A stretch of 64,000 nt of DNA from Coleofasciculaceae cyanobacterium (lineage in GTDB: Bacteria; Cyanobacteriota; Vampirovibrionia; Vampirovibrionales; Vampirovibrionaceae). Positions 2 through 9,194 of this stretch are shown piece after piece. The DNA lies in contig DATNPJ010000034.1 of the NCBI GenBank assembly GCA_036703295.1, positions 262,451 to 326,450 of the forward strand. The letters run 5' to 3'. The notes below the pieces were generated by a model. The model searched no databases. It was not told the DNA's origin and saw nothing but the letters and a program-made list of their open reading frames with translations. Numbering within the stretch: position 1 is the stretch's first letter; each line of letters starts with the position of its first letter. The position numbers were made by a program, and so were the translations under genes.

Positions 2-727
2 GAACTGGGCGCCGTGATTGATGTGGCGCTGGATCATGGCGTCACCGAAATCCTGGTCAACGATTCGCATTGCACCATGACCAACCTGTACCTGGAGCAG
101 GTGCATCCTCGGGTGTCGCTGCTTTCCGGAAAGCCCAAGCGCTGCGCCATGTCCGCCGGGCTGGATAAAACGTTTGACGCGGCCATGTACGTGGGCTATC
201 ACGCCAAGGCAGGCACCCACAAAGGGGTTTTGTGTCATACGTTCCATTCCAAGCTGTTTGATGTGTCCGTTAATGGCGTCTCCTACGGAGAAGGCGGCAT
301 CAACGCGTTGCATGCCGGGTTGACGTACGGTGTGCCGGTGATTCTGGCCAGTGGGGATCGTGCCTTTGCCGAAGAGATTCTCCAATTGATTCCGGATCTG
401 GCGATCGTGGAAACCAAGGAAGGGTTGACCCATACCGCCGCGCGCTGCCGTCCGATGGAAGCGGTGCTGGAAGAGTATGCCGAAAAGGTCCGCCACGTCC
501 TGGAAAACCGGGCGTCCTGGAAGAAGAACATTCTCCAGGTTCCCGGCCCCTTCGCACTCCGCATGACTTTCATCAACACCCTGGCGGCAGATGCGGCTAA
601 CAGCATCCCCGGTCTGGATCGGATTGATGGCCGCACGCTGGGATATAAAACAGATACCTTCGAAACCCTCTACCAGATGTTGCAATCCTGCTACAGTATT
701 CTCTCTTATACCAGCTTTCTGGAGTAG
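2..727 (+). CDS. dppA: D-aminopeptidase DppA / peptidase M55 family (5' end truncated by window edge)
   Basis: Motifs VNDSH, GYHA, HT, NG..YGEGGINA, SGD and KE match the M55 family. The frame is open from position 2. Confidence 0.85.
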   Translation, partial: ELGAVIDVALDHGVTEILVNDSHCTMTNLYLEQVHPRVSLLSGKPKRCAMSAGLDKTFDAAMYVGYHAKAGTHKGVLCHTFHSKLFDVSVNGVSYGEGGINALHAGLTYGVPVILASGDRAFAEEILQLIPDLAIVETKEGLTHTAARCRPMEAVLEEYAEKVRHVLENRASWKKNILQVPGPFALRMTFINTLAADAANSIPGLDRIDGRTLGYKTDTFETLYQMLQSCYSILSYTSFLE

Positions 728-1202: not shown

Positions 1203-1940
1203 CTAGGGCGCTTTCCGTCCGGTTTGCAAAGAGACGGAGCCCAGCATCAGGGTTTGGGAGCTGACATTGACACACCCTGCCGACTCAAAGGCTGTTTTCA
1301 GCTGCGCGGGGGTGAGAAAATGCCGGGTGGATTCCGACAGGTACTGGTAGGCTTGCTGATCCTTGGCCAAAGTGCCGCCAATCAGGGGCATAATGCGTGA
1401 GAAATAGAAATTCATGCCGGGAATGGCCGGGGTGGGGCAGGTGTCCAGATTGACCATCCAGCCGCCGGGCTTGATCACACGGTACATTTCGGCCAGCGCC
1501 TGCGGGGTATCCGTCACGTTCCGCAGGCCAAAGCTGATGATGGCCCCATCGAACGTCTTGTCCGGGTAGGGCAGAGCCAGGGCGTCCCCTTGGGTGAAAT
1601 TTACGTTGGGCTGGCCTTGAAAGCGCTGCCGGGCGATGGTCAGCATGTTTCCCGAGAAGTCCAGCCCCTCGATTTGCCCATGTGGGCCGACCAGCGGCTG
1701 CAAATAGCCCACCAGATCGCCGGTGCCGGTGCAGACATCCAGCACCTTGCCGCCCGGTGGTAGGTTCAGCTTGCCGCAGGCCAAGCGCTTCCATTGCTTG
1801 TGGAAACCCAGCGAGATGCAATTATTCAGGGTATCGTAAGTCCCGGCAATGCGGTCAAACATCTGCCGGACCTGAGTTGCCTTTTCAGTCTCCATCCTGG
1901 CCGGATCCGGCAGGACGGTCGATAACGCACGTTCGGTCAT
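1203..1940 (-). CDS. menG: demethylmenaquinone methyltransferase (MenG/UbiE family)
   Basis: V..MFD.IA..YD.LN..IS.G, VLDVCTGTGD SAM-binding motif, LPYPD.TFD and ISFGLRNV. Start placed at ATG 1940. Confidence 0.9.
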   Translation of the reverse strand: MTERALSTVLPDPARMETEKATQVRQMFDRIAGTYDTLNNCISLGFHKQWKRLACGKLNLPPGGKVLDVCTGTGDLVGYLQPLVGPHGQIEGLDFSGNMLTIARQRFQGQPNVNFTQGDALALPYPDKTFDGAIISFGLRNVTDTPQALAEMYRVIKPGGWMVNLDTCPTPAIPGMNFYFSRIMPLIGGTLAKDQQAYQYLSESTRHFLTPAQLKTAFESAGCVNVSSQTLMLGSVSLQTGRKAP

Positions 1941-2000
1941 GGTGGCTCTATTGTGGCACAAAGGCTCCCCGATTCGCCACCGGCCTGATGAAATGTGCGG

Positions 2001-3134
2001 CTATCGGGCGCTGAAGGGTGGGTAGCTGATTTTGGGAGGAAGCAGGGTGCCGTAGACCACCCGGTTTTTGCCCTGTTTCTTGGCCTCATAGAGGGCGGCG
2101 TCGGCTTTCTCGATGATTTCGTAGCCCTTGGCATGGTCCAGATCCAGTTGGGCCACGCCCACGCTGATGGTGATGGTCATCGGATTGTCCGGCATGCAAA
2201 AGACGGTGCGCTCCACCATGGCACGCAAACGTTCCAGGAGTTCGTAAGCGTCAATCTGTCCGGTTTCCGGCAGAATAAACGCGAACTCCTCGCCGCCGTA
2301 GCGTGCCGGGATATCCGATTCACGCACGTTCTGGATCAGCATGGCGCCCAGCTCGCGCAGGATGCGGTCCCCGGTGGGGTGGCCGTAGAAATCGTTGATC
2401 TTCTTGAAATCGTCAATGTCAAACAGCGCCAGCGAGAGGGGCTTGCGGTAGCGCTTGGCGCGGGCAATCTCGGCATCCAGTTGGTGATTGAACTGGCGGC
2501 GGTTGATGAGGCCGGTGAGCGCATCGGTGGCGGCCAGCGATTGCAGCTTGGAAACCTTGGTGGAAGTAGTACGGACCATTGAGCCGACGATGTTTCCCAG
2601 GTGGCTTAGCGTCCACATCAGCGGGATCAACATCAACAGCACTTGCATGCTGAGTGGCAGAGAGGCTGTGTTTATCGGCCCAAAGCCCAGCAGCATTGGA
2701 TAACCCAGCGGTAAAGTGATGGCGTAAAGCAGCGTGAAGGCCACCAGCATCATCCGCGCAATGCTTTTGTGACCGAGCGTTTGTGCCTGTAGCAGCACGA
2801 TGATGGAAAAGAGCAGAATGCCCAACTGGCCCGAGACAAGGTACATCAGGGCAACGAAGCCGAAACTGGTCAAGGGTGCCAGGAGGCTCAGCTTTTCCAG
2901 GGTCAATTCATCCATTTTAGGATGGCGTTTGAGCGACTTCAGGCTGGTTTCATTCAGCAGCAGGTAGCCGACGGTTATGAAGGCCATGATTCCAATGCGA
3001 ACCAGCGGCCAGACAGGGATTCCGGCCTGGAGTGAGTCCTTCAAGGAGAGTAACAGCAACGTTTCAAAGCCCAGCAAAGCGAACCCGAGGGTTCGGTTTA
3101 ATCGGAGGCCTTGTTTTAAATGTGTGTGCAGCAT
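2001..3134 (-). CDS. membrane-anchored diguanylate cyclase (GGDEF domain)
   Basis: About 6 hydrophobic N-terminal segments, then ATDALTGLINRR, DIDDFKKIND.YGH..GD, RESD I-site, RYGGEEF, AD.ALY.AK..GKN. Confidence 0.92.
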   Translation of the reverse strand: MLHTHLKQGLRLNRTLGFALLGFETLLLLSLKDSLQAGIPVWPLVRIGIMAFITVGYLLLNETSLKSLKRHPKMDELTLEKLSLLAPLTSFGFVALMYLVSGQLGILLFSIIVLLQAQTLGHKSIARMMLVAFTLLYAITLPLGYPMLLGFGPINTASLPLSMQVLLMLIPLMWTLSHLGNIVGSMVRTTSTKVSKLQSLAATDALTGLINRRQFNHQLDAEIARAKRYRKPLSLALFDIDDFKKINDFYGHPTGDRILRELGAMLIQNVRESDIPARYGGEEFAFILPETGQIDAYELLERLRAMVERTVFCMPDNPMTITISVGVAQLDLDHAKGYEIIEKADAALYEAKKQGKNRVVYGTLLPPKISYPPFSAR

Positions 3135-3164
3135 GCGCCAGCTTCCTTGTGGCTGTATGTAAGC

Positions 3165-3962
3165 CTATTTTGGCGCAGTTTTTTGGGTTGCGTCAATGGC
3201 TTCCAGTCTCCGGATCGCTTCCAATCCGATGGTGTTCCCAATTTCGACCCCTTTAGCCTTTTCGTAATAGGGCCGGGCTTCATCCAGCTTGCCCATGTTC
3301 TCCATCAACGTGCCCATGTTGAACAAGGCGCGCTGATCGTTGGGTTGGATTTTCAGTGCCTGCTCGTAGGCCGTCCGTGCTTCTTCCGCCCGTCCGGCTT
3401 TCTGCAACACGCTGCCCTTGTTGAAATAGTACTGACTGTTGCCCGGATCCAGCGTGGTCAGTTTGTCGAAAGTCTGGATGGCCTGATCAAGCTTGCCGTC
3501 AAAAGCATACGCTGTGGAAAGGCCGTTCAAGGTGTTGAGATGCTGCGGATTGATGGCCAGTGCCGTCTCAAAAGCCCCGATGGCCTTTTTGTGATCTTTC
3601 AGGGTCAGGTAGGCAAAGCCGATGTTGCTTTGAGCCTCCACCATCTTGGAATGACTGGCTAGCGCCAGTTCAAAATGCTTGATGGATTCTTTCAGCAGTT
3701 GTTTTTGTCCGGGCAGATTGCCTTTGTCCCTTTGAATCTGGGCAATCTGGAACAGCTCCACGCCCTTGTTGTATTCCACCAGCGCCTTGGCTTCTGGTGT
3801 GGCGGGCGTATCGTCGTCCTGTTTGGCTGCCGCCTGCCCGGAAACGTCGGTTTTTCCCGGCGGATTTTGCGCTTTGGCGTGCACCTCAGTGGCCGAAATT
3901 CCCATGCAGGACACGGCCAATATTAAGCTGATCGATAGATTGATTGCGGATAATCGGAACAT
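3165..3962 (-). CDS. exported tetratricopeptide-repeat (TPR) protein
   Basis: N-terminal signal-like segment and several TPR-pattern repeats (AYLTLKDHKKAIGAFETALAINP; YYFNKG.VL...GR.EEA..AYEQALKIQP). Its start overlaps the upstream stop (TAATG). Confidence 0.85.
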   Translation of the reverse strand: MFRLSAINLSISLILAVSCMGISATEVHAKAQNPPGKTDVSGQAAAKQDDDTPATPEAKALVEYNKGVELFQIAQIQRDKGNLPGQKQLLKESIKHFELALASHSKMVEAQSNIGFAYLTLKDHKKAIGAFETALAINPQHLNTLNGLSTAYAFDGKLDQAIQTFDKLTTLDPGNSQYYFNKGSVLQKAGRAEEARTAYEQALKIQPNDQRALFNMGTLMENMGKLDEARPYYEKAKGVEIGNTIGLEAIRRLEAIDATQKTAPK

Positions 3963-5308
3963 TAAACCACCTCCGTCCAGACATCGCGATTATTCAGGAT
4001 ATCACGATTCAGCTCACCCTCGCTGGAAGCGACCAAGGCCGCTACCGTGCAGCTGCTGATGACGTTGACCGCTGTTCTGCACATATCTAGCACCCGGTCG
4101 ATGGACCATATCAGAGCCATTCCACCCGCGAACAGTTCCACGTTTATATGGCCCAATGCATTCAGCACAATGGCCATGGTGATGAGGCCCGCGCTGGGAA
4201 CCCCGGCCGCCCCAATGGAGGCGATGATCGAAAACACGATGATCATGCCGATGTGATAAGGGCTGAGCGGGAGATGATAGGCCTGCGCCAGGAAAATAAC
4301 CGCGATAACCTCGAACATGGTGGTGCCGGTCTTGTTGATGGTGGCTCCGGTGGGCAGCACGAAGCTGGCAATGCGGTTGGAAACACCTGCCCGGCGCTCC
4401 ATGCAGGCAATGGTGATGGGCAGCGTGGCCGAACTGCTGGCCGTGCCGAACGCCACCATGATGGCCTCCGAGATGGCCCGGTACAGGTTCATGAAATTGA
4501 TTTTGGCCAGAACTCGCAACAAAATGGGGAAAATGACGAAGACCTGAATGAGCAGGCCGCCCAGAATGGCCACGCCGTACAGCCAAAGTTCGCTAAAGAC
4601 GTCCAGGCCGGATTTGGCCACCGTGACGAAGGCCAACGAGAAGACGCCCGGTACCGCAAAAATCATCACCCAGTCCGTCAGCTTCATGGTGGCGGAAAAC
4701 AGGGCTTCAAAGAAACTGACGATGGGCCGTCCGGCATCTCCAATGCTGGCCACGGCTCCCCCAAACAGTAGGGTGAATAGAATAACGGGCACCAGATCCG
4801 CCCGTGCCAGGGATTCCACCGGGTTACGGGGGATCATGTCGAAGAAAAGCTGCCGCAAATCCTGTGGGGTGTTTTGCAGTTGCTGAAGAATCGAGGTGGG
4901 ATCGGTTTGGGCAAACAGGCTATGGTGTAACTGGGTGCCGGGTTCCAGCATCCAGGCCAGGAAGCCACCCAGCAGGGCGCTCAAGGACATCAGGACCAGA
5001 AAATAAACCAGAACCTTGCCGCCCATGCGGCCCAACTGACGACTGTCTCCCAGTGAAGAGACCCCGACAATCAGCGAGCTGACCACCAACGGGACCACAA
5101 TCATGGTAATCAGCCGGATAAAGAGCTGTCCGACGATATCGAAGAACTGGTGAATGAAGAAGAATTGGTCCGGATCGGTGGTGCTGGGCGGGTAGGGCAG
5201 GTAGATCCCCAGCATAACCCCCAGCAGGATGGCCACCAGGATGTGCCAATGGCGTTTTGTTCCCAGCCCCAACGCAACCAGTACCAGCCAGAACGCTTTC
5301 GTTTTCAT
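3962..5308 (-). CDS. dicarboxylate/amino acid:cation symporter (DAACS, GltP/GltPh family) with atypical ion-site residues
   Basis: G.LFIRLI.MIVVPL, GTASSSATLP serine motif, LPTGATIN and DR.LDM.RT.VNV. The canonical NMDG reads NKTG and the canonical GD reads SS. Confidence 0.9.
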   Translation of the reverse strand: MKTKAFWLVLVALGLGTKRHWHILVAILLGVMLGIYLPYPPSTTDPDQFFFIHQFFDIVGQLFIRLITMIVVPLVVSSLIVGVSSLGDSRQLGRMGGKVLVYFLVLMSLSALLGGFLAWMLEPGTQLHHSLFAQTDPTSILQQLQNTPQDLRQLFFDMIPRNPVESLARADLVPVILFTLLFGGAVASIGDAGRPIVSFFEALFSATMKLTDWVMIFAVPGVFSLAFVTVAKSGLDVFSELWLYGVAILGGLLIQVFVIFPILLRVLAKINFMNLYRAISEAIMVAFGTASSSATLPITIACMERRAGVSNRIASFVLPTGATINKTGTTMFEVIAVIFLAQAYHLPLSPYHIGMIIVFSIIASIGAAGVPSAGLITMAIVLNALGHINVELFAGGMALIWSIDRVLDMCRTAVNVISSCTVAALVASSEGELNRDILNNRDVWTEVV

Positions 5309-5455
5309 TCACGGGTCCTTCAGCAAATTCAAGATTATCTTCATTATACCTGTTGACGCGGGAAGTCCTGGCTTTTCCTCATTTGAATGCTGGATACGGC
5401 AGCCGGGAATGACGGGGGTGAAAGCGCTGGGGCTTGGAAAAGACGGTTTTAATGT

Positions 5456-5980
5456 CTATCGGCGGGCGCGTTTCCTGGGGACCCATCCGCCAAAAATATC
5501 ACTGAGCCGGTCCAGGATAATGTGAATCAGCGAACCCAGCCAGATTCCCGCTCCGAGCAGCAGGAAATCGTGGAGATGCGTTTTCAGAAAAGTCAGGATG
5601 GTTTGGCGGGGAGTGTGGAGGTCGGCAGAGAGCCCCGCGGCTTGAGCCAGATAGAGATAAAGTCCGGTATAGATGGCAATCAGCACGGCGGATAAATACA
5701 GCAATCGCAGCCACGGCGCCAGAATGACCCCATGCGAAAGTCCGGAGCGGTGCTTGGCGACCCACTGGTAAGGCCACCAGATGAACCGAAACACGCCCCA
5801 TCGGTAGAATGGGCGACTGCGGGTGTCTAAATCCGGGCTGAGTAAAAAGCCGCCCACCCAAGTGCCCACCGTAATCATGGCGACTGCGGGCCAGTCCAGG
5901 TGCAAGCCCCAGCGACAAGCCATCAAAACCGGCGGCAAAAAGCCCACCGTCACCCATTCATGCGTCTTCCCGGAAGCCAT
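5456..5980 (-). CDS. DUF2227-family putative metal-binding membrane protein
   Basis: M.SG.TH start, LSPDLD, RWG..R.IWWPY...HR..LSHG, and H..LD at the C-terminus; family recalled from cyanobacteria. Confidence 0.75.
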   Translation of the reverse strand: MASGKTHEWVTVGFLPPVLMACRWGLHLDWPAVAMITVGTWVGGFLLSPDLDTRSRPFYRWGVFRFIWWPYQWVAKHRSGLSHGVILAPWLRLLYLSAVLIAIYTGLYLYLAQAAGLSADLHTPRQTILTFLKTHLHDFLLLGAGIWLGSLIHIILDRLSDIFGGWVPRKRARR

Positions 5981-6091
5981 AGGGGGTTACCGCCAGTAAG
6001 TTGTCTGCTTTATGAAGAGTCTACTTTGAAAGATAATTTTACCTTGTTATATGGTAAGGGCATTATAGGAAAGCTTGGTAAAGCAATTACT

Positions 6092-6886
6092 ATGGCGAAG
6101 GAGAAACATCACGTGAACCCTAAAAATATATCTTTTTGGAAGAGGCTCTCGGCTTCGGAATGGATTGCGCTTTTTTCGTGCATTTTGTCTCTTTCTTCCT
6201 TCTGGTTCACCTATAGCATTACAAATTTAAAAGAGATAAATGATCGGCATATAGAATTGCAACATGTCATTCAACATCTTACAGAAATTCATCGGGAGAT
6301 AGCCCTTCCCAGAGCTCGAATGAGTCCCGGCATGACTAAGTTTACACTTGATGAATACGAGTTAGAACTGGAAGTCTTTATAATGAAGGCTTACAAATTG
6401 ATAAAAGAAATTCCAAAAGAAAAATTATCACCTTCAGAAATTTTCTATGTTGGTTCTAACTTGGCAGAACGGGGAATTGAGCATATAGACAAAGCAGAAG
6501 AAATGTACATTTTGGGTCAAGATATTGCAAGTAGGGACCCTTATTACTTTCAGCAGTACGCAGAGATTTCAGTTAGTCTGGCCAAACTGTTTTATGAAAA
6601 AGGAGATATCGAAAAGGGAAAAGAGCTTTTCGAAAAAACGCTCAACAATATCTCTAACACTGCGGTAATAAACAGTCCGAGGAGAATGTTAATGCAAGGA
6701 ACAGTTTATATGTATTGGGCAAGTGCTGAGACCGAAACTGAGAGGCCAAATTGCCAAAATGTTATATTTTACTTGAATCAAGCTGAAAAAATGTTGGATT
6801 CTATAAATAAACGTTCATACTTGTTACTTGTAAATCTTTATAAGGCCAATCTAAAACAAATAGGACTTGAGTCAGATTGCCAGTAA
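6092..6886 (+). CDS. AT-rich hypothetical protein with one N-terminal TM helix and TPR-like helical repeats
   Basis: Codon usage is strongly AT-biased relative to the flanks. Likely start is ATG 6092 (MAKEKHH); hydrophobic WIALFSCILSLSSFWF; YAEISVSLAKLFYEKGDIEKGKELFEK is TPR-like. Confidence 0.6.
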   Translation: MAKEKHHVNPKNISFWKRLSASEWIALFSCILSLSSFWFTYSITNLKEINDRHIELQHVIQHLTEIHREIALPRARMSPGMTKFTLDEYELELEVFIMKAYKLIKEIPKEKLSPSEIFYVGSNLAERGIEHIDKAEEMYILGQDIASRDPYYFQQYAEISVSLAKLFYEKGDIEKGKELFEKTLNNISNTAVINSPRRMLMQGTVYMYWASAETETERPNCQNVIFYLNQAEKMLDSINKRSYLLLVNLYKANLKQIGLESDCQ

Positions 6887-7060
6887 TGTTTAATGGTACT
6901 TATCAGGCTAATTCATCTTGCTTATAAAGTAAAAGTCTCTACACTGTTCGAAGTCCAGAGTATCAAGCTCTACATACGATCATAAGATATCGCTTTGGGT
7001 ACCTTTTCGCTATAATCGGGTTCTGTCAGAATCTGGATTATCAAGCGAGGAGTGAGCGAA

Positions 7061-8605
7061 ATGGCTGCAACCGTGCAGAATCCCCAAATGCAATTCGAGA
7101 TTAAGCCCAGCAAAACCAGCGGGCAATCGCAGTTTTTGAACTATATCGGCGGCCAGTGGGTCTCGGCCAAGTCCGGCAAAACCTTCGAGAGCCGCAACCC
7201 GGCGGAGCCCAGCGATGTGATCGGGGTGTTCCCGTCTTCCGGCAAGGATGAAGTGGACGCCGCCGTGGCCGCCGCGAAAAAAGCCTTCGAGAGCTGGCGG
7301 CTCTTCCCGGCGCCCAAGCGGGGTGAGATTCTGTTCAAGGCCGGGCAGATCATGATCGAGCGCAAAGAGGAACTGGCGCGCGAAATGACCCGCGAGATGG
7401 GCAAAGTGCTGGCCGAGGCTCGTGGCGACGTGCAGGAAGTGATCGATATGACCTTCTACGCCGCCGGTGAAGGCCGCCGCATGTTCGGGGAAACCACGCC
7501 TTCCGAATTGCAGAACAAGTTTGCCATGTGCGTGCGGGTACCGTTGGGCGTGGTGGGTCTCATCACCCCCTGGAACTTCCCCATGGCCATTCCCAGCTGG
7601 AAAATCATGCCCGCCCTCATCTGCGGCAACACCTGCGTGATTAAACCGGCCACCGATACCCCGTTGCTGGCGCACCGTCTGGTGGAAATCATGGAAGAAG
7701 CCGGTCTGCCCAAAGGCGTACTGAACATCGTGCATGGTTCCGGCAGCCAGGTGGGCGAACCCCTGATGAGCCATCCGGATGTGAAGCTGATTTCCTTTAC
7801 CGGCTCCACCGATGTGGGCCGCCGGGTGAACGAGGCCTGCGCGCCCAGCTTCAAACGGGTCTCTCTGGAAATGGGCGGCAAGAACGCAGTGGTGATCATG
7901 CCGGATGCCAACCTCGATCTGGCAGTCGACGGCTGCGTCTGGGCGGCCTTCGGAACGTCTGGCCAGCGCTGTACGGCGGCCAGCCGCATCATCGTTCACA
8001 AAGACGTGCACAAGCAAGTGCGCGAAAAGCTGATTGCCCGCATCAACCAATTGAAAACCGGCTACGGACTCAATCCGGAAGTGCAAATCGGGCCGGTGGT
8101 GAACGAAAGCGCCATGAAGAAAATTCTGGAATATATTGAAATCGGCAAGAAAGAAGGCGCCGAACTGGTGACGGGTGGCGAGCGGGATACCGCAGCCGGT
8201 GCCGGCTGGTTCATCAAGCCCACGCTGTTTGATAACGTGAAGCCGAGTATGCGCATCGCCCAGGAGGAAATCTTCGGGCCGGTAACCGCGCTCATCCCGG
8301 TCGGCAGCTTCGATGAAGCCATTCAGGTGGCCAACGGCACCAACTTCGGTCTGTCGCTGGCGATTTACACCAAGGACGTGAACCGCGCGTTTACAGCCTT
8401 GCGCGATCTGGAGTCCGGTCTGGTCTACGTGAATGCGCCCACCATCGGAGCGGAAGTCCACCTGCCCTTCGGCGGTACCAAGGACACCGGTAACGGCCAC
8501 CGCGACGCCGGTCAGACCGCGCTGGAAGTCTTCTCCGAGTGGAAGGCCTGCTTCATCGACTACTCCGATAAACTCCAACGCGCCCAAATCGACACCACCG
8601 ACTAG
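7061..8605 (+). CDS. NAD(P)+-dependent aldehyde dehydrogenase
   Basis: ITPWNFP, KPA, FTGST, catalytic LEMGGKN and GQRCTA, EEIFGP. GAGGAG RBS before ATG 7061. Confidence 0.93.
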
Positions 8606-8622
8606 GCGATTCGGAACCATCA

Positions 8623-8657
8623 AAAAAGCCCCGGAAAATAATCCTCCGGGGCTTTTT
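8623..8657. terminator. bidirectional intrinsic terminator
   Basis: AAAAAGCCCCGGA / TCCGGGGCTTTTT inverted repeat between convergent genes. Confidence 0.85.
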
Positions 8658-8675
8658 AACTTCAGGATGCCGTAA

Positions 8676-9194
8676 TCAGGCGTTCCACTTGTTGAGTACA
8701 AACCGTTCCGTCTTGTCGAGCGGTTGCTGGGTTTCTTGCTCGAATTCTTGCAACCACGCGTCTTTGGCGGGATCGGTTTCTCCACGAAGGCGTTTGACCA
8801 CTTCCCTCAGCTGATTAAGATTCTTCGCACGTTCAGAAGATTTCTGGTCGTATGCCTCACCGGCTTCCTGGCTTTTGGCATGCGCGCGAATCCCGGCTTT
8901 ACCGTCCATATCCGCACCATATTGCACAAAGGCTCCGACCAGTGCCCTTGCGGCCAGAGCGATTTCCCTGGCCCGCAGGGCCTTCAGCTGGAGAGTACGG
9001 ACCAGGGAAGGCGGCTGTTTTTTCAGCTCGGCCTGGCGCTTTTCTACTTTGCGTAATTGCTCACCTGTTTTATCCACAGTGATGTCCAATTTCAGCTCGT
9101 CATAGAGCGGTTTTACTCGCTCGCGCAGTTGTTGCAGGTCCTGCATGTACTCCGGACGACCGGCAAACAGAATCGGTCGGAATGAAGTTTTCAT
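8676..9194 (-). CDS. hypothetical coiled-coil protein (172 aa)
   Basis: GAGGAG RBS upstream; charged helical sequence; converges on the terminator. Confidence 0.7.
   Translation of the reverse strand: MKTSFRPILFAGRPEYMQDLQQLRERVKPLYDELKLDITVDKTGEQLRKVEKRQAELKKQPPSLVRTLQLKALRAREIALAARALVGAFVQYGADMDGKAGIRAHAKSQEAGEAYDQKSSERAKNLNQLREVVKRLRGETDPAKDAWLQEFEQETQQPLDKTERFVLNKWNA

Follow-up and report, generated by a model that had tools for sequence, protein, structure and literature searches.

How glutamate transporters couple their substrate to ions is a central and actively studied question. The Na+-coupled members of the family carry the signature [S/T]92-93, N310, [M/S]311, [D/E]312 and [D/E]405 (GltPh numbering, which is used for single positions below unless stated otherwise), and the H+-coupled members carry [ALIVMF]92, L311 and N405, their putative protonation site being E279 (Reddy et al., 2025, PMC12668577). 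In the same study AncInt was described, a reconstructed cation-independent exchanger whose Na+ sites are intact and whose coupling was lost through the allosteric changes S295P and N327Q; in its ExtInt descendants the site residues are poorly conserved (PMC12668577). Proteins in which neither signature is complete are predicted there to be uncoupled, and the study leaves room for further ways of dispensing with Na+ that would be marked by other residues (PMC12668577). In EAAT3 and GltPh, filling of Na1 and Na3 is accompanied by a flip of the residue-311 side chain, which leaves the lipid, turns toward the substrate site and takes part in forming Na2 (PMC7929514). The proton acceptor proposed for the EAATs is E374 (GltPh 318), a position that is Gln in members without H+ coupling (PMC7929514). 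Basic side chains that stand in for Na+ are known from ApcT (K158), CaiT (R262) and the elevator-type LaINDY (R159/H392) (PMC11782487). The present analysis concerns a transporter of the glutamate-transporter family with a lysine at position 311, encoded on contig DATNPJ010000034.1 in a 64-kb window (the whole stretch of DNA that was analysed, 64,000 nucleotides).

The window gene is ATG-initiated and its 448-residue product belongs to the SDF/DAACS family. The protein matched Pfam PF00375 with 360.7 bits (cutoff 27.9) over residues 21-428, and all of its close matches in the PDB were glutamate-transporter homologues, the best being AncInt (9BGZ/9BGY, E ~1e-80). An AlphaFold2 (AF2) model was built from a 26-sequence alignment (predicted local distance difference test score, pLDDT, 76.8; predicted template modelling score, pTM, 0.78). 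It displayed the fold of eight transmembrane helices (TMs) with the helical hairpins HP1 and HP2, superimposed on inward-facing GltPh with a TM-score of 0.80-0.81, and kept the helix break at N325-K326 (window numbering). A second SDF paralogue was looked for in the window and none was found. The sequencing runs that match the gene are soil-metagenome DNA, and among the runs listed there was no RNA run.

HMMER alignments of the window transporter to AncInt (9BGZ) and GltPh were ungapped around both cation-site motifs and placed NKTGT opposite NMDGT in TM7 and NVISS opposite NVTGD in TM8. Columns were read from a MAFFT alignment anchored on GltPh, which recovered the known GltPh landmark residues. 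In this alignment the window transporter differs from GltPh by T92L, S93M, R276A, L305T, M311K, D312T, G404S and D405S, and Q318 has become Glu. The motif at the end of the TM7 stretch GATINKTGT is specified by the codons AAC AAG ACC GGC ACC, with the lysine codon AAG at 4331..4333 of the reverse strand. The TM8 stretch DRVLDMCRTAVNVISS is present and holds NVISS, in which Ser (codon AGC) replaces the Na1 aspartate D405. The GATINKTGT motif and the loss of the aspartates D312 and D405 had been noted in a first-pass annotation of this DNA, and both are borne out by the open reading frame, the codons and the two kinds of alignment. Judged from the alignment, that annotation understates the case, as T92 and S93 are also gone and L305 is Thr. 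The side-chain ligands of Na3 (T92, S93 and D312) and of Na1 (D405) have become the uncharged L, M, T and S, and only N310 stays. Nor is there a compensating acidic residue that restores the sites: position 404 is Ser, and E318 is present but occurs in canonical relatives as well. The Na+ signature is contradicted by L92, M93, K311, T312 and S405, N310 alone being in agreement with it, and of the H+ signature only L92 is found, whereas K311, S405 and S279 do not fit. The substrate-binding residues, by contrast with those of the cation sites, were said to be retained, and the alignment agrees: the serines S277-S279 of HP1 and D390, D394, R397, T398 and N401 of TM8 are all kept, as is the equivalent of T314, so that the residues expected for an acidic amino acid substrate are in place.

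The backbone carbonyl donors of Na1 (G306, N310 and N401) and of Na2 (T308, S349, I350 and position 352) are also in place. Together with the invariance of N310 among close relatives, they are what would speak for a residual Na+ symport of lower stoichiometry, through these remaining ligands or through a relocated site. Such a symport is exceedingly improbable, since neither of the buried carboxylates that neutralize Na1 and Na3 is left, the Na3 cavity appears to be filled by Leu and Met, and a lysine stands at a Na2 ligand position with no new acidic residue nearby.

The conservation of these residues was followed in a set of 120 pooled sequences with the same lysine-bearing state (the K-clade), which are Vampirovibrionales relatives down to ~55% identity. 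Where they are named, the nearest 120 database clusters are Vampirovibrio, Vampirovibrionales or Melainabacteria, and a scan of GTDB species genomes gave 80 orthologous loci. Position 311 is Lys in all 120 K-clade members and N310 is invariant. Thr is found at position 312 in 117/120 and at position 305 likewise in 117/120, and Met at position 93 in 118/120, whereas position 92 is always Leu, Phe, Met or Val. Position 405 is Ser in 108, Thr in 10 and Gly in 2 members and never Asp. The substrate residues are 99-100% conserved, except S278 (116/120), and position 318 is Glu in 112 and Gln in the other 8. Against orthologues of 76-83% identity the pairwise ratio of non-synonymous to synonymous substitution rates (dN/dS) of the window gene was 0.09-0.14, values that are approximate because dS is near saturation. 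These comparisons indicate that the K state is under strong purifying selection. Decay to a pseudogene was rejected on account of the dN/dS of ~0.1 and the invariance of the replacement residues.

The K state is rare. When clustered at 50% identity, the clade amounts to two or three representatives among 1.84 billion proteins, and K311 was present in only 5 of 148 diverse family representatives at 50% identity. No characterized Na+-coupled member has NKTG. The pattern is far beyond what chance would give.

Two other observations were made on the K-clade. The divergent members L027 (NKLG and N401G) and P0122 (a motif deletion and N310K) look degenerate and may be decaying copies. Furthermore, a cytoplasmic N-terminal motif before TM1, G-T-K-R-H-W-H-I (residues 16-24 of the window transporter; 5236..5263, reverse strand), is strictly conserved; its H20 is invariant in the K-clade and in the NMNG clade described below, and is Asn in all canonical Melainabacteria relatives.

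It could be argued that the lysine serves the substrate rather than the cations. The side chain of the canonical residue 311 points into the loaded substrate site (PMC7929514) and K311 is invariant; a pocket-lining Lys311 might, as a second positive charge beside R397, accommodate a ligand of another shape or with more negative charge, the losses at the ion sites then being secondary. However, S277-279, T314, D394, R397, T398, N401 and the tip of HP2 are unchanged with respect to the canonical sister clades, and the co-varying positions T92, S93, D312 and D405 are pure cation ligands. The retention of D394, which is Ser in DctA, argues for an alpha-amino acid as the substrate. An altered substrate specificity is regarded as improbable.

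In neighbour-joining trees with bootstraps, a Melainabacteria-wide clade received 100% support. Within it the K-clade was monophyletic (90%) and was joined by a small sister clade (94.5%), the focal columns being excluded. This sister clade (L019, L023, L024 and P0091/P0094/P0108) has T92, M93, NMNG, E318 and D404-D405 (NV.DD). The acidic charge seems here to have moved from TM7 to TM8 (D312N and G404D), and by its residues the NMNG clade is likely to be an intermediate toward the K state. The remaining members of the Melainabacteria clade keep D312 and D405. One group of Vampirovibrionales is fully canonical (T92, T93, NMDG, E318 and D405), and the orthologues of the gut-dwelling Gastranaerophilales (L029-L080) have [ILV]92, T93, N[MF]DG, Q318 and D405, with D312 kept. 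Five positions are conserved in the K-clade and unlike both sister groups, namely L305T, M311K, D312T, M365I and D405S; four of these lie at or beside cation ligands and none contacts the substrate. The codons fit single-nucleotide steps through Asn for both aspartates (GAC to AAC to ACC for D312, and GAY to AAY to AGY for D405), a path that agrees with the state of the NMNG sister clade. The gene order around the canonical orthologue L021 is the one found in most Vampirovibrionales loci, which indicates that the K state evolved in place from a canonical gene. As to the Gastranaerophilales, ~40% of their orthologues have Phe311 (NFDGT), coupled with D390E, and in HP2 the group has S-S-x-C in place of the GltPh sequence S349-I-G-T352.

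The Melainabacteria clade did not group with AncInt, EcGltP or EcDctA in these trees, which speaks against its descent from the AncInt node of the Firmicutes phylogeny. EcGltP and EcDctA (I/V92, E279, NLDG and N405) were placed with AncInt elsewhere, which implies that the K state is an event independent of the known H+-coupled clade. Membership of that GltP/DctA clade was rejected, as the signature, the NCBIfam scores and the tree position all disagree with it; the window transporter scored 250 bits with the GltP model (cutoff 638) and 231 bits with the DctA model (cutoff 513), both far below the cutoff. At the two positions by which AncInt is switched off, it has S295, as in the Na+-coupled state, and Q327, as in AncInt, and both residues are universal in the Melainabacteria family.

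A second lineage with a lysine at position 311 was found among sequences with Acidobacteriia-type names (P0185, P0236, P0271-P0278 and P0295), which belong to the Acidobacteriota and relatives. It has T92, T93, NK[TS]G, K318 and N/T405, and therefore carries two new lysines in TM7, at 311 and at 318, the latter being the proton-acceptor position of the EAATs. Its nearest relatives (~50% identity) are uniformly canonical sequences of the Gemmatimonadota/Longimicrobiales type, and its immediate sister P0283 is NMNG with D405 and already has K318. After removal of the focal columns, the second lineage stood with the canonical Gemmatimonadota-type sequences in 84.5% of the replicates and was grouped with the Melainabacteria K-clade in 0/200. 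These placements indicate that the NKTG-type motif, the loss of D405 and the NMNG intermediate arose twice independently. Among the 148 representatives, a non-acidic residue at position 405 accompanied K311 in 4/5 and was found in 6/143 of the others (Fisher p = 5e-5, not corrected for phylogeny). Exceptions are P0111, with NKDG and D405, and P0266, with NKTA and D404-D405. An apparent third case, P0182 (SRNGT with G405), was rejected as an Arg-311 lineage, because a homology search showed it to be a singleton among canonical relatives.

The best explanation of these observations would be a Na+-independent elevator transporter of the Asp/Glu type in which Lys311 serves as a tethered cation and which is probably driven by protons or else uncoupled. 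As a whole this proposal stands an even chance of being correct. Its parts differ in strength, and with respect to them the Na+ independence of the window transporter is highly probable, the role of Lys311 as tethered cation is slightly favoured, and coupling to H+ is given a modest preference over no coupling. Asp or Glu would be bound without Na+. The canonical side chain at 311 swings toward the substrate and helps to form Na2, for which reason Lys311 is proposed as the tethered cation; its ammonium group would probably reach the HP2/TM7a carbonyl cage of Na2 or lie beside the substrate. The formal charge would be equal, two Asp and three Na+ giving +1 in the canonical site and one Lys giving +1 in the new one. 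With this match the binding site could be held, with no ion bound, in a substrate-competent state that resembles the sodium-loaded one. The former Na3 cavity would be taken up by the side chains of L92 and M93, both hydrophobic.

That the lysine could act as a built-in cation had been put forward in the first-pass annotation, which located it next to the empty site. The idea has gained from the two independent lineages that pair K311 with neutral residues at 312 and 405; the location has to be amended, as the lysine is not simply beside the empty site: it has taken the place of the Met that helps to form Na2 (PMC7929514). Lysine at this Na2-contributing position goes together with the absence of the carboxylates of Na1 and Na3, a combination that arose convergently in two lineages. 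The reading best supported by the sequences is that of a Na+-independent member with a built-in cation, and it is strengthened by convergent evolution.

Net uptake by the proposed tethered-lysine transporter would most likely be proton-driven. The candidate carrier is Glu318, which would have been inherited from a canonical ancestor that bore E318. Instead, or in addition, Lys311 itself could carry the proton by being reversibly deprotonated, as K158 is in ApcT. [quoted passage not shown] If that were true, it would be a third solution to ion coupling, mechanistically distinct from the Na+-coupled and the GltP-type H+-coupled ones, and one that evolution would have found at least twice via NMDG to NMNG to NKTG.

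If no proton is coupled, the transporter would act like AncInt, as an exchanger or facilitator that needs no cation. Lys311 would then do no more than stabilize the high-affinity conformation, no ion gradient would be used, and uptake would be drawn by metabolism or exchange. AncInt (9BGZ/9BGY) is not only the best PDB match by sequence but also has the best Foldseek E-value, Q327 is one of its two switch residues, and the absence of both full signatures is taken to predict uncoupling (PMC12668577). Moreover, a site that is permanently in a state like the Na+-loaded one would be expected to hinder the return of the empty carrier and thus to favour exchange. On the other hand, the second switch residue is S295 and not Pro, and the clade is phylogenetically far from AncInt and ExtH. 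The residues of the Na+ sites in ExtInt are poorly conserved, which points to relaxed selection, whereas the replacements in the K-clade are nearly invariant, which suggests that they are doing something. The buried carboxylate E318 is also kept in 112/120. This exchanger is possible, though on balance doubtful. The first-pass annotation had named an uncoupled transporter among its options; this may be so, yet with E318 so widely kept it is not favoured over H+ coupling.

Several points weigh against the proposal of a tethered lysine with proton coupling. Weak residual Na+ binding is possible, since Na1 and Na2 still have their backbone carbonyl ligands. Glu318 is only a candidate carrier, because it also occurs in the canonical Vampirovibrionales and in many other bacterial members whose Na+ sites are intact, and 8/120 of the K-clade have Gln. 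Lys311 can be tolerated without loss of the aspartates, as P0111 has NKDG with D405. The second lineage has Lys318 and keeps T92/T93, for which reason the two K lineages may differ in their coupling mechanism. Finally, the relationships were obtained by neighbour-joining only.

The positions of the transporter features and of the neighbouring genes are collected in Table 1.

Table 1. Features of the transporter gene and its neighbours in the window (residue numbers are those of the window transporter unless marked GltPh or hEAAT3).
Feature	Position	Strand	Basis or context
CDS, 448-aa SDF/DAACS (glutamate-transporter family) protein	3962..5308	-	ATG-initiated ORF, Pfam match, PDB alignments, AF2 model
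TM7 motif N325-K326-T327-G328-T329 (GltPh N310-M311-D312-G313-T314)	4322..4336	-	alignments, codons
TM8 motif N415-V-I-S418-S419 (GltPh N401-V-T-G404-D405)	4052..4066	-	alignments, codons
TM3 L106-M107 (GltPh T92-S93, Na3 side-chain ligands), both now hydrophobic	4988..4993	-	alignments, codons
T320 (GltPh L305), adjoins Na1 carbonyl ligand G306; K-clade-specific change	4349..4351	-	column comparison
E333 (GltPh Q318, hEAAT3 E374), candidate proton acceptor	4310..4312	-	alignment, PMC7929514
HP1 S291-S292-S293 (GltPh S277-S279), substrate-binding serines, kept	4430..4438	-	alignment
TM8 substrate stretch D404, D408, R411, T412, N415 (GltPh D390, D394, R397, T398, N401), kept	4064..4099	-	
Peptidase_M55 (D-aminopeptidase DppA-like)	14..727	+	downstream of cluster, beyond the methyltransferase; synteny in many Vampirovibrio loci
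UbiE/COQ5-family methyltransferase, last conserved gene of same-strand cluster	1203..1961	-	
Membrane-bound diguanylate cyclase, ~5 TM, GGEEF active site, RESD I-site (RxxD)	2001..3134	-	downstream
TPR-repeat protein, N-terminal signal/lipoprotein-like sequence	3165..3962	-	directly downstream of transporter
DUF2227 membrane protein, conserved neighbour	5456..5980	-	upstream of transporter

The transporter gene lies in a same-strand cluster with the order DUF2227-SDF-TPR-GGDEF-UbiE (1203..5980, reverse strand), and its TAA stop codon overlaps the ATG of the TPR gene by 1 nt (TAATG). This order is kept in L002-L015, L018, L021, L025 and L028, and L019 and L023, which are of the NMNG type, keep it without the TPR gene. 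It is absent at the K-type loci L016, L017, L020 and L022 and in the Gastranaerophilales. A scan of the cluster for promoters and terminators gave nothing above chance at the intergenic positions. From the spacing, the 1-nt overlap and the synteny, the cluster may be an operon. On the basis of synteny, it may also link amino acid transport or sensing to signalling by cyclic di-GMP (c-di-GMP). Because the cluster is found beside the canonical L021 and is missing at several K-type genes, such a link would be independent of the K state.

With this neighbourhood, the transporter could be regarded as a sensor or co-sensor that mainly signals to the neighbouring membrane diguanylate cyclase whether ligand is bound and transports little or nothing; a 'sensor-only' member was also among the options of the first-pass annotation. 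The order SDF-TPR-GGDEF is conserved across the Vampirovibrionales down to ~57% transporter identity and includes the stop/start overlap, the cyclase has an intact GGEEF, an I-site and a TM domain, and an SDF transporter, DctA, is a co-regulator of the sensor DcuS (PMC4280142). Co-sensing by DctA does not preclude transport, however, and the same gene order accompanies the canonical L021 and the NMNG-type L019 and L023 while it is missing beside K-type genes. Purifying selection is strong and uniform over the whole protein, with a dN/dS of ~0.1, and the stem branch is neither long nor accelerated. A sensor that hardly transports is highly improbable, and a sensor-only role found no support.

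The GC content is 0.48 in 6001..8000, compared with ~0.55-0.57 on the flanks. The open reading frames at 5900..6886 (forward) and 7010..8785 (reverse) have no Pfam match, and in related loci the homologue of the 591-residue open reading frame is split into several reading-frame pieces.

The K-clade would thus represent a natural, strongly conserved and convergent case of a route opposite to that of AncInt, in which the sites themselves have been rebuilt around a lysine. With this testable system one could learn whether a tethered charge is able to stand in for three bound Na+ in a transporter of the elevator type, and by what transport would then be driven. The Vampirovibrionales are predatory non-photosynthetic relatives of the cyanobacteria and live in low-sodium soil and freshwater, and a K-type transporter bears on their physiology in such habitats. 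In the literature searched no mention of M311K was found, and searches on Vampirovibrio and transporter returned nothing on the clade. That T92 and D405 can be lost was known before, as both are absent from the published H+-coupled signature (PMC12668577). What appears to be new from the sequence comparison is the K311/T312 pair and the disappearance of every side-chain ligand of Na1 and Na3 but N310.

Compared with the described systems, the window transporter is like GltPh and GltTk in its fold (TM-score ~0.80), in ~32% identity, in HP1/HP2 and the TM7 helix break, and in S277-279, T314, D394, R397, T398 and N401. It differs from them by T92L, S93M, D312T and D405S and by Lys311, Ala276 and Glu318. 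With the ExtH transporters (GltP and DctA of E. coli and GltT of B. caldotenax) it shares a hydrophobic residue at 92, the absence of Asp405 and the expected Na+ independence. However, ExtH has L311, D312, N405 and E279 where the window transporter has K311, T312, S405 and S279, and its clade is separate and appears to be of independent origin. AncInt and ExtInt resemble it as the best PDB sequence match, in Q327, in the lack of either full signature and in the predicted Na+ independence, whereas AncInt keeps all residues of the Na+ sites and the window transporter keeps S295 and has its sites rebuilt into a strictly conserved pattern with Lys. EAAT1-3 share the Glu at the position of EAAT3 374, beside R397 and the substrate site, but the EAATs keep three Na+ sites and counter-transport K+, whereas the window transporter is without the side-chain ligands of Na1 and Na3 except N310. 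The closest analogy to the proposed role of Lys311 would be with ApcT, CaiT and LaINDY, each of them a Na+-independent protein in which a basic side chain takes over from the Na+ that its Na+-coupled relatives use for coupling. These belong to different families and folds, and in the window transporter the occupancy of a Na+ site by the lysine is deduced from its position.

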